Source: an uncultured Acidimicrobiia bacterium
GTDB lineage: Bacteria; Actinomycetota; Acidimicrobiia; Spongiisociales; UBA5794
Length of the DNA: 64,000 nt
Reading direction: 5' to 3'
NCBI GenBank assembly: GCA_963753185.1
Contig: CAVWBO010000007.1
Location: forward strand, 1,360,312 to 1,424,311
In this document: piece after piece, positions 53,927 to 61,133 of the stretch
How positions within the stretch are numbered: position 1 is the stretch's first letter
How the letters are laid out: each line of letters starts with the position of its first letter
Notes under the pieces: generated by a model
What the model was told of the DNA's origin: nothing
Databases searched by the model: none
What the model saw: the letters and a program-made list of their open reading frames with translations, nothing else
Made by a program: the position numbers and the translations under genes

Positions 53927-54277
53927 GGGGGTGACATGGTTTCGACCGTGAGAGTTGAGGCGCCGGAAGCGAGCCGAGGTCGCCGGAGTCCTCGTAAAAG
54001 AGCCGGTACACACATAAGTGCAGACGAAAGTTACGCACTGGCAGCGTAGTTAAACGCTCCTGTCCTCCTGTTGGGCACCCACCTCGGCAGGTCAGGGCAA
54101 CGCAATGTGGGATGCTCCCGCCGGGATTCCGGGACCGGCGGGTCAAGCCAACTCCGGATAGGGCATGAGGGTGCTTGCCGACAGAGTCCTCGTGATCCGA
54201 AAGCTCGCTGTTGGCTGCGCTCGGAGATGCCGACGCTGATGTCTCTCGGGACGGGGGTTCGATTCCCCCCACCTCCA
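53927..54277 (+). ncRNA. ssrA: tmRNA, tag (A)ADESYALAA* at 54020-54049
   Basis: 5' GGGGGTGACATGGTTTCGAC. 3' T-arm GGGGGTTCGATTCCCCC, acceptor CACCTCC-A with G3:U pair. Resume context ATAAGT-GCA. smpB nearby. CCA not encoded. Confidence 0.97.
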
Positions 54278-54310
54278 CGAAGGGTGCAGACACGCCTGCA
54301 CCGCATCGAA

Positions 54311-58407: not shown

Positions 58408-58904
58408 CACGGCTCCAGGGCTGACGCGAGCCCATCGACGACGGCGGCGGAAGGCATCCGAGTGAAGACCTCAGGATCGACTTTGATCTTCATGTCGCGT
58501 GATCCTCCTCCGACGATCACCCATGGTTGCTCGAGGACTGCCGCGTCGACGAACAGGGGCATGTCTGGGGGAAGGCCGAACGGGGTGACTCCGCCGATCT
58601 CCATACCTGTCACCTCTGCGGTCAGTTCCTGCGGTGCGAACGACACCTTCCTGACATCCATGAGCTGGCGGCCCATTCGATTGACGTCGAGGCGCGTGGT
58701 GGCGAGAACAAGGAACATGGCATGGACGCCCTCGGGACGGCGCGACGCGAGCATGATCGCGTTCGCCGATTGCTCGGGCGGGATCCCGTAGTGAGCGCAG
58801 AACGCAGCAGTGTCTGCAAGGGCGGGATCGCACTCCATCGTCTCGTACGATGCGTCCACCGCGTCGAGGGCCGCGATCACCTTCATCCGAAGGACTTCGC
58901 TCAC
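58407..58904 (-). CDS. YbaK/EbsC aminoacyl-tRNA editing domain protein
   Basis: [29 protein letters not shown]. Confidence 0.88.
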
Positions 58905-60022
58905 TCGGTGTCGCCCATGCAGACGCCAAGGGACCGCGCAGCCCCGATCCACGGATGATCGATGGGGATCGTCTTGCGCCTGCCCGCGACCTCCTCGAGG
59001 GGGATCGTGCGTGCCCCCTCACCGTCGCTCGCCACCATCACCCCGAACTCTCCCGCCGCGATCCGATCCGTGCAGGCGGTGCCGAGGGTGGTCGCCAGGA
59101 TCCGGTCGACAGGTGAGGGTGATCCGCCACGCTGGACGTGACCGAGTATGGTCACACGCGCATCGAGCCCGGTTCGGGCCTCGAGTTCGGCGGCGATGTC
59201 GATCGTCCGTCGCCGTTCCGCTTCGAGTCGTAGCACCTCCTCCTTCAGAGCGGTCGCCTCCGACTCGCCGGCTTCCTTCGCACGAGCGCGCAGGTCCGCG
59301 ATCTTCTGCATGCGCTCGGCGCTCATCGCTCCCTCTGCCACGGCGACGATGGAGAACCGACTTCCTGCGGTCCGCCTGTTGAGGATGGACTGCGCGATGT
59401 CGTCGAGCGAGTAGCCGATCTCGGGGATCAGGATCACATCGGCGCCGCCGCCGAGACCCGCCCCGACCGTGAGCCACCCGGCGTTGTGTCCCATGATCTC
59501 GACGACGATGATTCGGTGGTGGCTGTGAGCCGTGCTGTGGAGCCTGTCGACGGCCTCGGTCGCGATGTTGAGAGCCGTATCGAACCCGAACGAGCGGTCC
59601 GTTCCCCACACGTCGTTGTCGATGGTCTTGGGGAGGGCGATGACCGGCATGCCGTGTTCGGCCAACTTGAGTGCGTTCTTCATGGTTCCGCCTCCGCCGA
59701 GGCACACCAGCGCTTCCAGGTTGTGCTCGGTGAAGGTTGCGAGCATCGCGTCGCGCATGTCGAGGATCGTGCCTCCGACATCCATCTTGTGCACCTTGTC
59801 GCGACCCGTGCCAAGCACGGTCCCGCCCTGGGTGAGGATGCCGGACAAGGTCTCGGAGTCCAGCCGGATCGTCCGGTCCTGCATCAGACCACGGAATCCG
59901 TCCCGGAATCCGATGACGTTCCAGCCGTGTTGGCGGATGGCGGACTTGCCGAGCGCCCTGATCGCCGCGTTGAGACCGGGCGCATCGCCCCCCGCCGTCA
60001 GTACTCCGATGCCCTTCGCCAC
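58901..60022 (-). CDS. pfkA: 6-phosphofructokinase (PfkA family)
   Basis: [42 protein letters not shown]. Confidence 0.94.
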
Positions 60023-60098
60023 GCAACCTCCCTATCGAACCGCACGATACCCCGTCCCGGTTCCCAGGACGGAGTGGTCATCGGTGTGCGAAAAATGC

Positions 60099-60127
60099 GT
60101 GACAGATCGGGTCGACCGTGGCATGAT
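60099..60127 (+). promoter_or_regulatory. housekeeping sigma promoter for the structured RNA
   Basis: A-tract 60091-95, -35 GTGACA (60099-104), 17-nt spacer, extended -10 TG-G-CATGAT (60119-127). Confidence 0.6.
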
Positions 60128-60132
60128 CGCGG

Positions 60133-60340
60133 TCCGGTGAAAGGAGGTGGTCCAGACAATGTCTGAAAGTTCTTCAAGGACCCCGGAGGTGGTCGAGCGC
60201 TAGCGCGACGATCATTCCATGAGGCCGCGCTCCTCTCATGAGGCAGGTGGCGACTTCAACTCGGACCACCGGAACCCGGAGCTCCGCACGACCAAGGTCC
60301 CGTGCGGCGGTGCATGCGCCGAAAGCGCTCCGGGTTCTCA
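60133..60340 (+). ncRNA. unclassified structured RNA with extended anti-16S-3'-end sequence and 14-codon ORF
   Basis: See findings. Multiple nested stems in the 340-nt pfkA/MDMPI intergenic region. Confidence 0.6.
60159..60203 (+). CDS. candidate 14-aa micro-ORF MSESSSRTPEVVER
   Basis: ATG 11 nt after AAGGAGG (60141-60147). Stop codon lies inside a hairpin. Confidence 0.5.
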   Translation: MSESSSRTPEVVER

Positions 60341-60362
60341 CGCGCTGGTAGTGTCGCCATCC

Positions 60363-61133
60363 ATGGACACCCATGCCTACCTGACCTCCGTCGAGCGTGA
60401 TGCTGCATCCATGATGGCGATCGCCGCCGACCTCCCGCTCGATACACCCGTTCCGACATGCCCGGGTTGGACACTGAGGGACCTCATGGAGCACACGGGC
60501 ATCGTCCATCGACACAAGACCGAGACGGTACGCGGTGGTTGGCTCGACGAGTCTCCACCCGAGCCTCCCGGTCCCGATGGTGACCTCCTCGAGTGGTTCG
60601 GCAGCGGCGTCGAAGAGATGCTCGACGTGTTCCGTACGTCCGATCTGTCGCAGCCTACGTGGACGTGGTGTGCGCATGAACACAGAGCGGATTGGTGGGT
60701 TCGGCGAATGGCCCACGAGACCGTCATCCACGGCGCCGACTCGCTCATCGCCGCTGGTGGGACGGGGCGAGTCGATCAGGAGCTCGCGATCGACGGCGTT
60801 GACGAGATCCTCGACGAGATGATGATCGGCGGGCCCGATTGGGGAACACTCACCGCCGGGGAGGGCGTGATCGCCCTCGAGGCGGGAGGCCGCCGGTGGG
60901 TCGTCCGTCGGGCCTCGTTCTCGGGAACCTCGCCGATCAGCGGGAACACGTACGAGGACCTTCCGGCGCTCGTGTACGCAGAGGGCAGCGAACCCGATGC
61001 GGTGATCGCAACAGACCCCGAGACCCTCGATCTCTGGCTCTGGGGCCGCGGCAATCTTCCGAGCGGCTCCGTCGGCGGCGACAAGTCACTCGTCGACTAC
61101 GTTCGTCTCGTCGCTGCAGAAGCGACCTCGTGA
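60363..61133 (+). CDS. mycothiol-dependent maleylpyruvate isomerase family (MDMPI/DinB superfamily) protein
   Basis: VPTCPGWTLRDLMEH, RRMAHETVIH..D, AIDGVDE, LWLWGR. Confidence 0.9.
   Translation: MDTHAYLTSVERDAASMMAIAADLPLDTPVPTCPGWTLRDLMEHTGIVHRHKTETVRGGWLDESPPEPPGPDGDLLEWFGSGVEEMLDVFRTSDLSQPTWTWCAHEHRADWWVRRMAHETVIHGADSLIAAGGTGRVDQELAIDGVDEILDEMMIGGPDWGTLTAGEGVIALEAGGRRWVVRRASFSGTSPISGNTYEDLPALVYAEGSEPDAVIATDPETLDLWLWGRGNLPSGSVGGDKSLVDYVRLVAAEATS

Follow-up and report, generated by a model that had tools for sequence, protein, structure and literature searches.

A divergent Ms_IGR-5 small RNA in Acidimicrobiia with a site complementary to the complete 16S rRNA tail, a mini-ORF and a predicted pseudoknotted fold

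In the 64-kb stretch of DNA from an uncultured Acidimicrobiia bacterium given above (contig CAVWBO010000007.1; hereafter the window), an intergenic segment carries a 17-nucleotide (nt) complement to the 3' tail of 16S ribosomal RNA (rRNA), followed by an open reading frame (ORF) of only 14 codons, and the question raised by this locus is what kind of RNA is encoded there and how it would deal with the ribosome. All coordinates are positions in the window, and the element is on the + strand unless stated. Based on alignment with the Rfam model and with homologues, the segment 60133-60341 (+) is a local, divergent copy of the Ms_IGR-5 small RNA (sRNA; Rfam RF02471), a known family, and what is newly given here is a testable anatomy of this family, consisting of the 16S-tail site, the mini-ORF and a pseudoknotted fold. 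Ms_IGR-5 probably works through ribosome engagement and translation-coupled refolding, and not through the sequence of the encoded peptide.

60133-60341, + strand: small RNA, member of RF02471 (end-to-end Rfam alignment and homologues), with a predicted 5' end at about 60131-60134

An E-value search of positions 59950-60450 with RF02471 aligned the segment 60133-60341 with the whole model (positions 1-184 of 184) at 23.4 bits and E 0.002. This score lies below the curated gathering threshold (45 bits) of RF02471, described in Rfam as "Actinobacteria sRNA", and a scan at curated thresholds gave nothing at 60133-60341, the transfer-messenger RNA (tmRNA) being the only match in the whole window. 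When 40 relatives and the genome of the window were searched with RF02471, a full-length match was obtained in 36 of these 41 genomes of the order, nearly always one per genome. Among the relatives listed from this search, the alignment covers the whole model as in the window copy, and two matches, at 48.7 and 46.5 bits (unpublished genomes G038 and G027), exceed the gathering score. A covariance model, R1, constructed from the window copy and 29 RF02471 relatives (alignment A1, n=30), gave full-length matches at 57-82 bits in records of M. colombiense, Mycolicibacterium, Mycobacterium sp., Micromonospora, Nocardioides and Kineococcus, and on the records of these six groups RF02471 itself scored 85-179 bits at identical coordinates, thereby connecting the window copy with Ms_IGR-5 through intermediates. 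Full-length R1 matches were found also in Nonomuraea and others, with RF02471 scores of 56-179 bits at identical coordinates over all the named records, among which the best R1 matches are those of three Acidimicrobiia metagenome-assembled genomes (MAGs; L065, L067 and L066). Since R1 and RF02471 find the same records at the same coordinates, the window RNA is a divergent member of the known family and not a new one. The original prediction, made from the letters alone, had recognised no RNA family, and this view is replaced by the full-length, sub-threshold RF02471 match tied to the Ms_IGR-5 genes through R1.

The window copy and RF02471 have in common the signature motifs GGAGGUGGUCC near the 5' end, the internal GAGGUGG followed by a stop codon, and the terminal stem. 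Likewise Ms_IGR-5, first found in Mycobacterium smegmatis, is an independent sRNA gene with GGAAGGAGGUGGUCC at the 5' end, an internal GAGGUGG...GCUAG and a GC-rich terminal stem. The structure line of RF02471 in Rfam, however, is without a pseudoknot and has a first helix different from that of the model described below. The unpublished genomes G038 and G027 contribute two rows each to alignments A1 and A3 (see below for A3), and no conclusion rests on them alone. A second RF02471 match in the same genome (C7:200596-200773, locus L003 1501-1678; 17.7 bits, E 0.09) was rejected as spurious because it lacks the motifs and its sequence is coding-like, and it is probably noise. Weak RF02471 matches (E up to 1) were observed also in the named control genomes, Caulobacter vibrioides and Thermus thermophilus.

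Ms_IGR-5 entered the catalogue in 2013, has the status of an sRNA gene in Rfam and appears routinely in annotations of mycobacterial and streptomycete genomes; in the literature searched it is without an assigned function, and the reports naming Ms_IGR-5 or RF02471 contain only listings and remarks on expression or ribosome footprints. The same literature gave no description of a full-tail 16S complement, a conserved mini-ORF, a pseudoknot or a function, the original family description, which may hold details, and the supplementary tables of the Ribo-seq papers, which may list this ORF, being outside this scope. Term searches of PMC4633059 and PMC9094748 found no mention of the family or its features.

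Two segments of the RNA resemble Shine-Dalgarno (SD) sequences.

60139-60155, + strand: SD1, the 17-nt complement to the 16S rRNA 3' tail, GAAAGGAGGTGGTCCAG; the part conserved family-wide is 60139-60153
60185-60194, + strand: SD2, the second GGAGGUGGUC copy, located inside the ORF; its GGAGG ends 8 nt before the last sense codon

The 16S rRNA of this genome ends with ...CTGGATCACCTCCTTTCT (the single 16S gene detected ends with ...GCGGCTGGATCACCTCCTTTCT), and therefore SD1 pairs with the organism's own tail at all 17 positions, one of them as G:U, confirming the complementarity originally claimed. Among the 13,253 in-register GGAGG sites on both strands of the 2.87-Mb genome, SD1 is outranked in the length of its tail complement only by the antisense of the 16S gene itself, and the sites next in length, six of them, reach 14 nt. 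The predicted duplex of SD1 with the tail has an energy of -32.9 kcal/mol, compared with -10.7 kcal/mol for a plain AGGAGG site.

The variation of SD1 was examined using 50 sequences not selected by motif (30 from the RF02471 search and 20 from a phylum sample), for which 16 SD1 positions, facing the last 16 nt of 16S rRNA, were tabulated. The 15 contiguous positions 2-16 are pair-competent in all 50 sequences, the only variation being A/G at four positions facing U and C/U at one facing G, and 43 of the 50 have A or G at position 1, which faces the terminal U. Such exclusively pair-preserving variation is the signature of selection for pairing with an invariant partner; the tail sequence was checked for the genome of the window only, and the tails of the other hosts were assumed to be identical, as the conservation of the 16S tail is general knowledge. 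In addition, GGUCC of SD1 is invariant even where its candidate intramolecular partner changes, which points to pairing with the tail. As judged from these patterns of variation, selection maintains the pairing of SD1 with the whole single-stranded tail of 16S rRNA.

The sequence GGAGGTGGTC is present at 60143-52 and again at 60185-94, 42 nt downstream, as had been noticed from the sequence, and nowhere else in the window (0.34 copies expected; two copies reached in four of 100 shuffles). The 50 sequences collected without a motif pattern all keep its GAGGTG unchanged.

60159-60203, + strand: 14-codon ORF, MSESSSRTPEVVER, with ATG at 60159 and TAG at 60201-03; start and stop are kept in homologues

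This ORF, also noted in the original prediction, is conserved as a frame across homologues. At the level of the order, 28 of 30 loci carry ATG, GTG or TTG 5-11 nt after GGAGG (9-11 nt in all but two), and the frames, 13-14 codons in length, end with ...RT[LPQR]EV[AV][EG]R; family-wide, the start codon lies 5-13 nt after GGAGG and the ORF has 10-19 codons. Among 95 homologues (alignment A3), a stop codon is located exactly 15 nt after the internal GAGGUGG in 94 (TAG 63, TAA 16, TGA 15), and TGG never takes its place. An in-frame start without an intervening stop is present in 89 of the 95, and four of the six exceptions have CTG at the start position with the frame open. The two control frames showed starts in 61 and 17 of the 95, and no conserved stop. 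CTG in place of ATG, GTG or TTG, with the frame open to the conserved stop, was observed in a sub-clade of Acidimicrobiales (L042, L049, L063 and L106) and in L158, and this replacement suggests initiation at CTG on these Ms_IGR-5 RNAs. Ribosome footprints on MS_IGR-5 homologues of M. abscessus and M. smegmatis are reported in PMC4974804; from the conserved frame together with these footprints, translation of the mini-ORF is considered likely.

The amino-acid sequence follows a different pattern. The N-terminal half of the ORF is not conserved and the C-terminal motif RT.EV.. recurs across the phylum, but the residues that vary (x, A/V, E/G and the Arg codon) coincide with nucleotides whose remote pairing partners change along with them, these pairs including columns 5/53, 65/163 and 66/162. 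The GAG (Glu) and GTG (Val) codons show zero synonymous change in the 50 sequences, and non-synonymous changes elsewhere are frequent and compensated in RNA pairs, the opposite of the peptide-level purifying selection by which synonymous changes are tolerated and non-synonymous ones avoided. In one homologue (L170) the ORF is kept in another frame relative to GGAGGUGG, giving an unrelated peptide. Since the variable residues coincide with covarying pairs, what is conserved appears to be the RNA and the act of translation. The micropeptide considered in the original prediction thus loses ground: the constraint is on RNA pairs and frame, and the peptide sequence looks secondary or incidental in these comparisons.

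The fold to which the ORF contributes was modelled with 46 pairs, located as follows.

60134-60137, + strand: P1a, 5' strand, pairing with 60183-60186; this helix is 100% paired in 30 sequences
60183-60186, + strand: P1a, 3' strand (CCGG), inside the ORF at the variable "x" codon of RTxEV
60188-60202, + strand: P2a and P2b, 5' strand, GGUGGUCGAG (60188-97) and CGCUA (60198-202), including the first two bases of the stop codon
60248-60270, + strand: P2b and P2a, 3' strand, UGGCG (60248-52), internal loop ACUUCAA and CUCGGaCCACC (60260-70), supported by covariation
60204-60247, + strand: P3, variable insert (hairpins), different in length and sequence among relatives
60272-60337, + strand: 3' domain, a three-way junction of P4 (60272-82/60327-37), P5 (60284-90/60301-07) and P6 (60308-11/60318-21)
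60178-60181, + strand: pseudoknot strand GGAC (Arg and Thr codons of the ORF), pairing with GUCC at 60297-60300
60297-60300, + strand: pseudoknot strand GUCC in the P5 loop, pairing with GGAC of the ORF

The model was tested on A1 (n=30) and on A3, the 95 sequences of which were aligned to the model and lean towards it. In A1 the model is 96.9% paired, compared with 32-44% when the partner was slid by one to three columns, and 22 pairs show compensatory changes, the observed values being reached in none of 500 shuffles; in the 95-sequence set it is 94.6% paired, with compensatory changes in 36 of the 46 pairs, so the structured RNA predicted at this locus does covary. Column pair 5/53 of P1a appears in four Watson-Crick types (AU 16, GC 11, CG 2 and UA 1; 30/30 paired), and all four P1a pairs are compensatory in the larger set. 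P2a and P2b are 99.7% and 100% paired in A1, with compensatory changes in 5/10 and 5/5 pairs of the 95-sequence set, and P2b covers 60198-202, which therefore places the stop codon within the helix. The 3' segment CUCGGaCCACC of P2 resembles the 16S tail sequence GGAUCACC, and GGACCACC within it pairs with the second GGUGG in this long-range helix, to which further covarying pairs are added. Between P2b and P2a, the internal loop (60253-60259) keeps a GA(A/C)UyCC-like sequence family-wide. In the 3' domain all pairs are compensatory in the 95-sequence set (P4 11/11, P5 7/7 and P6 4/4). P4 is the 11-nt inverted repeat GAACCCGGAGC/GCTCCGGGTTC with 100% complementarity, and the 11-bp outer stem enclosing two hairpins, as originally drawn, is thus both present and covarying.

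The pseudoknot, formed between NGAC of the ORF and GUCN' of the P5 loop, has all four pairs standard in 100 of 104 homologues. C, A or U takes the first ORF position in nine cases, seven of which carry the matching change in the loop, and SD1 stays the same. Helix P1b, proposed by RNAalifold between GGUCC of SD1 and GGACC of the ORF, was rejected as the conserved pairing, since it is the P5 loop, and not SD1, whose changes follow those of the ORF strand. In the modelled fold an open loop, bounded by P1a and the pseudoknot, holds SD1, the start codon and the first codons, and the remainder of the ORF is paired. Several smaller pairings of the original prediction fared less well. TCCGGT (60133-38) with ACCGGA (60268-73) is paired in only 61.6%, a score reached in 122 of 500 shuffles, and 19 of 30 sequences lack the pair at columns 5/172, the partner of the 5' end being CCGG at 60183-86. 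Over the stop codon, the GTCG/CGAC hairpin does exist in the window but is clade-limited, since 51 of 115 homologues could form an equivalent one, compared with a mean of 26.5 after shuffling, and the CATGAG/CTCATG stem falls in the variable insert.

A fold masking SD1, already considered in the original prediction, competes with this model. GGTGGTCC (60146-53) and GGACCACC (60263-70) form an 8-nt complement, and the minimum free energy structure of the single sequence (-97.1 kcal/mol, z-score -3.6) pairs GGUGGUCC of SD1 with GGACCACC. In all 34 sequences with the full GGA[CU]CAC[CU] motif, the fold with SD1 paired to GGACCACC lies 2.3-14.2 kcal/mol below that with P1 and P2, but the nearest-neighbour energy model ignores the pseudoknot and the computed energies leave the ground state unsettled. 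Both arms of the masking fold are invariant, and for this reason it is beyond a covariation test. Pairing of SD1 with the 16S tail is predicted at -32.9 kcal/mol and that with the internal mimic at -17.6 kcal/mol; these modelled energies would allow a hypothetical switch, with the tail of 16S rRNA displacing the mimic from SD1.

These features suggest the following course of events. The 30S subunit would dock on the folded RNA via SD1. In the modelled fold the second half of the ORF and its stop are locked by the 4-bp helix of the 5' end, the pseudoknot and the 15-bp long-range helix with the second GGAGGUGG, and a ribosome translating the mini-ORF would have to melt the pseudoknot, P1a and P2, leading to remodelling of the RNA. 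With the stop codon in the A site, GGAGG of SD2 ends 8 nt before the P-site codon; this spacing is usual for Shine-Dalgarno sites, and a ribosome at termination could therefore be held at SD2. Of the 30S-binding or ribosome-sequestering role proposed originally, we favour the engagement of the ribosome and do not extend the claim to sequestration, for which stable binding of 30S or 70S particles at an abundance close to theirs would be needed and on which the predicted duplex energy of SD1 and the published ribosome footprints bear. As to the cellular purpose, titration or sensing of free 30S subunits is a guess by analogy.

Whether the RNA is a gene of its own was examined from its promoter and surroundings.

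60099-60127, + strand: promoter, with -35 GTGACA (60099-104), a 17-nt spacer and an extended -10 TGgCATGAT (CATGAT at 60122-127)
58901-60022, - strand: phosphofructokinase gene (PF00365; Pfam match), the divergent neighbour, outside the element
60363-61133, + strand: MDMPI-family gene (MDMPI_N/MDMPI_C; Pfam match), the downstream neighbour, outside the element

The promoter, GTGACA-17-CATGAT with the extended TG as originally proposed, is the sole sigma70-like site in 59800-60700 (shuffled mean 0.1). Among 30 loci, an extended -10 (TGnNAnnnT) ends 4-7 nt upstream of model position 1 in 27, and the hexamer NAnnnT is present in all 30. The neighbours are much less constant: pfkA is located divergently upstream in 13 of the 30 loci and an MDMPI-like gene downstream in only 11, all within the taxonomic family of the window. 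In 36 diverse loci of the phylum and beyond, the next ORF with high GC at third codon positions (GC3) is mostly on the opposite strand, and of 10 neighbour proteins sampled, nine match mutually different Pfam families (aminotransferase IV, THAP4-like haem-binding, alpha-amylase, ABC transporter, FMN reductase, PLP enzyme, TetR regulator, beta-eliminating lyase and MlaD protein) and one is without a match. Conserved neighbours were sought across the loci, and none was found beyond the pfkA/MDMPI synteny of the window's taxonomic family; this variation of neighbours rules out a conserved cis-regulatory role. With its own conserved promoter, variable neighbours and covarying fold, the independence originally ascribed to the RNA is upheld, and by comparative evidence the element is a stand-alone, single-copy sRNA gene with its own promoter and a predicted length of about 200 nt.

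Near the downstream gene, TAGTGT lies 8 nt upstream of the MDMPI ATG at 60363 (60349-60365, + strand) and is kept in the closest relatives. Leaderless translation is common in Actinomycetota according to the abstract of PMC4633059. The position of TAGTGT is compatible with a leaderless MDMPI mRNA, as originally suggested. A tmRNA gene at 53927-54280 (+; 155.6 bits) is located 6.2 kb upstream of the element. Within the taxonomic family of the window, 11 genomes have the two genes on one strand at a distance of 2.4-20 kb; in other genomes of the order the tmRNA lies 1.8 Mb away in one and on other contigs in the rest. In a Terriglobales record (L107) it is about 3 kb from the element. A functional link to tmRNA was rejected, the proximity being confined mainly to the window's taxonomic family and probably representing synteny only.

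Metatranscriptome contigs from three of four runs, belonging to three studies, lie on 60109-60392, 60142-60281 and 60143-60371. Within 60109-60392 there are two long contigs with 0-1 differences, two with 4-6 differences and two short pieces. The remainder of 59600-60900, with the flanking genes, has little or no cover in X1, X2 and X4, and X3 yielded only short pieces of low identity; nothing is concluded from the uncovered parts. Such contigs neither define the ends of a transcript nor rule out DNA as their source, and two run on past the predicted element, and thus they give a weak hint of the expression of Ms_IGR-5 in this organism. The family is already known to be expressed in Streptomyces and mycobacteria; its validation by RNA-seq is reported for S. 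lividans (PMC8079986) and its mapping as an sRNA transcription unit for S. avermitilis (PMC8780764).

The homologues anticipated in relatives are thus present in 36 of the 41 genomes of the order and also, by R1, in 67 of the 151 genomes of the phylum sample, nearly always once each. The presence is all-or-none per taxonomic family, for example 10/10, 9/10 and 10/10 as against 0/10, 0/9 and 0/7. The unpublished genomes G041, G057, G086, G120, G126 and G157 enter only this 151-genome tally, and no conclusion rests on them alone. A scan by motif pattern yielded, outside the Actinomycetota, long contigs labelled Acidobacteriota and records of Sumerlaeota, Eisenbacteria, Syntrophobacter, Leptospira and Rokubacteria, on which R1 scored 16-52 bits, the Rokubacteria being weakest (15.9 bits). 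Nine such records other than Leptospira were tabulated, and showed 4/4 pairs of P1a, 12-15 of the 15 pairs of P2 and, in the best five, 9-11 of the 11 pairs of P4. RF02471 exceeded its own gathering score on three Acidobacteriota records (L092, L069 and L052, labelled Blastocatellia and Acidobacteria; 47.7-52.3 bits), whose copies differ in the P5/P6 region and carry ORFs of greater length (12-19 codons); given these matches above threshold, the name "Actinobacteria sRNA" is too narrow. The extension of the family beyond Actinomycetota is therefore likely from these matches, but not secure because the loci were pre-selected by motif pattern and are derived from MAGs. In two Acidobacteriota records, L052 (2260-2435, -) and L107 (4832-4903, +), tRNA genes lie directly downstream on the same strand.

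Several explanations other than ribosome engagement have to be weighed. If the product were a peptide of 12-14 residues (xxxxRTxEVAxR), with the RNA structure only tuning its expression, the conservation of ORF, start and stop, the recurrence of RT.EV.. across the phylum and the ribosome footprints reported in PMC4974804 would all be accounted for; such a peptide is nevertheless unlikely, given the unconserved N-terminal half, the range of 10-19 codons, the changes of the x, A/V and E/G residues in step with compensatory or wobble changes of their paired partners, the lack of synonymous variation in the Glu and Val codons (n=50) and the unrelated peptide in the other frame of L170. A conventional trans-acting sRNA, the G-rich motifs of which target C-rich RNAs by base pairing, with ORF and 16S complement as by-products, would agree with the listing as an sRNA gene and with the discovery of the family, which, according to the review PMC4109619, used co-immunoprecipitation with heterologous Hfq in M. 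smegmatis. A by-product, however, would fix neither the stop in 94 of 95 sequences, by three different stop codons, nor the start in 89-93 of 95, and the variation of SD1 fits pairing with the 16S tail position by position; we consider this explanation improbable.

The proximity of the MDMPI gene, whose same-strand start codon is 22 nt downstream of the last stem (an arrangement found in 11 loci of the taxonomic family), and two RNA-library contigs running from the element into the start of that gene could be taken as signs of a 5' leader or attenuator that acts through translation of a leader peptide. This role is very improbable: loci outside the window's taxonomic family have other neighbours, mostly with a convergent next gene, the 36 diverse loci lack a conserved downstream gene on the same strand, and in Streptomyces the RNA is mapped as a separate sRNA unit (PMC8780764). 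A chance SD-like arrangement in an intergenic gap is refuted by the conservation throughout the order and the phylum, the covariation and the uniqueness of SD1 in the genome, and its probability is next to nil.

The reading by ribosome engagement and translation-coupled refolding is the one we favour, and a number of observations count against it. The window copy scores 23.4 bits where RF02471 demands 45, and the R1 search found no copy in 84 of the 151 phylum genomes sampled, indicating that the RNA is dispensable in many lineages. The sequences compared were gathered by covariance models or by motif pattern and are biased towards conserved features. The computed energies favour the pairing of SD1 GGUGGUCC with GGACCACC in all 34 testable sequences, and the invariant Glu-Val codons could still reflect a requirement for the peptide. 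Moreover, the spacing between SD1 and the start codon is long in the order (9-12 nt, with 5 nt in two relatives), and very long Shine-Dalgarno sites tend to slow the escape of ribosomes. Transcript ends, translation and 30S binding in this organism rest on prediction, the contigs being a weak hint.

In its logic, the proposed action resembles that of 6S RNA and the mycobacterial Ms1. 6S RNA, an abundant RNA, docks RNA polymerase and is freed by the synthesis of a short product RNA. In both cases a small RNA would imitate the ideal substrate of a central machine, and escape would take place via a short product; the difference is that the machine here would be the ribosome and not RNA polymerase, and no kinship in sequence or structure is present. 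Dual-function sRNAs such as SgrS/SgrT, SR1/SR1P and RNAIII/hld are likewise structured small RNAs that are also translated. Their peptides are conserved and functional and lie apart from the base-pairing part, whereas the ORF of Ms_IGR-5 is interwoven with the fold and its peptide looks secondary. Leader-peptide attenuators and upstream ORF sensors also contain a short ORF, the translation of which remodels the downstream RNA, but Ms_IGR-5 is without a conserved downstream gene. For Ms1, binding to the RNA polymerase core is stated in the abstract of PMC4191392.

The consensus of another family, the CC2171 sRNA of Caulobacter (Rfam RF01867), starts with GAAAGGAGGUGAUCCAG, likewise a complement to the full 16S tail. 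Its match to the window is weak (60131-60286, +; 14.9 bits, E 0.66) and rests on this motif, homology not being established, and neither an internal GAGGUGG nor a comparable ORF is evident in the consensus. From this consensus and the weak RF02471 matches in Caulobacter and Thermus, small RNAs with a full 16S-tail complement may therefore occur in other phyla.

Taken at its widest, Ms_IGR-5 would be a ribosome-directed counterpart of 6S RNA, in which a decoy initiation site of the folded RNA captures the 30S subunit through the whole 16S tail, the ribosome is freed only by translating a throw-away mini-ORF and thereby opening the pseudoknot and the long-range helix, SD2 may hold the terminating ribosome, and the RNA titrates or reports free 30S subunits as a global regulator of translation across Actinomycetota and at least Acidobacteriota; this full picture is a speculation, and an unlikely one as it stands. 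The RF02471 family reaches Acidimicrobiia, below the threshold of Rfam, and likely extends beyond the phylum, and its anatomy combines the strongest possible Shine-Dalgarno site, a mini-ORF with a seemingly incidental peptide and a pseudoknotted fold that the ribosome would have to unfold. If the engagement of the ribosome is true, Ms_IGR-5 would be an RNA of wide distribution that has the translation machinery itself as its target.

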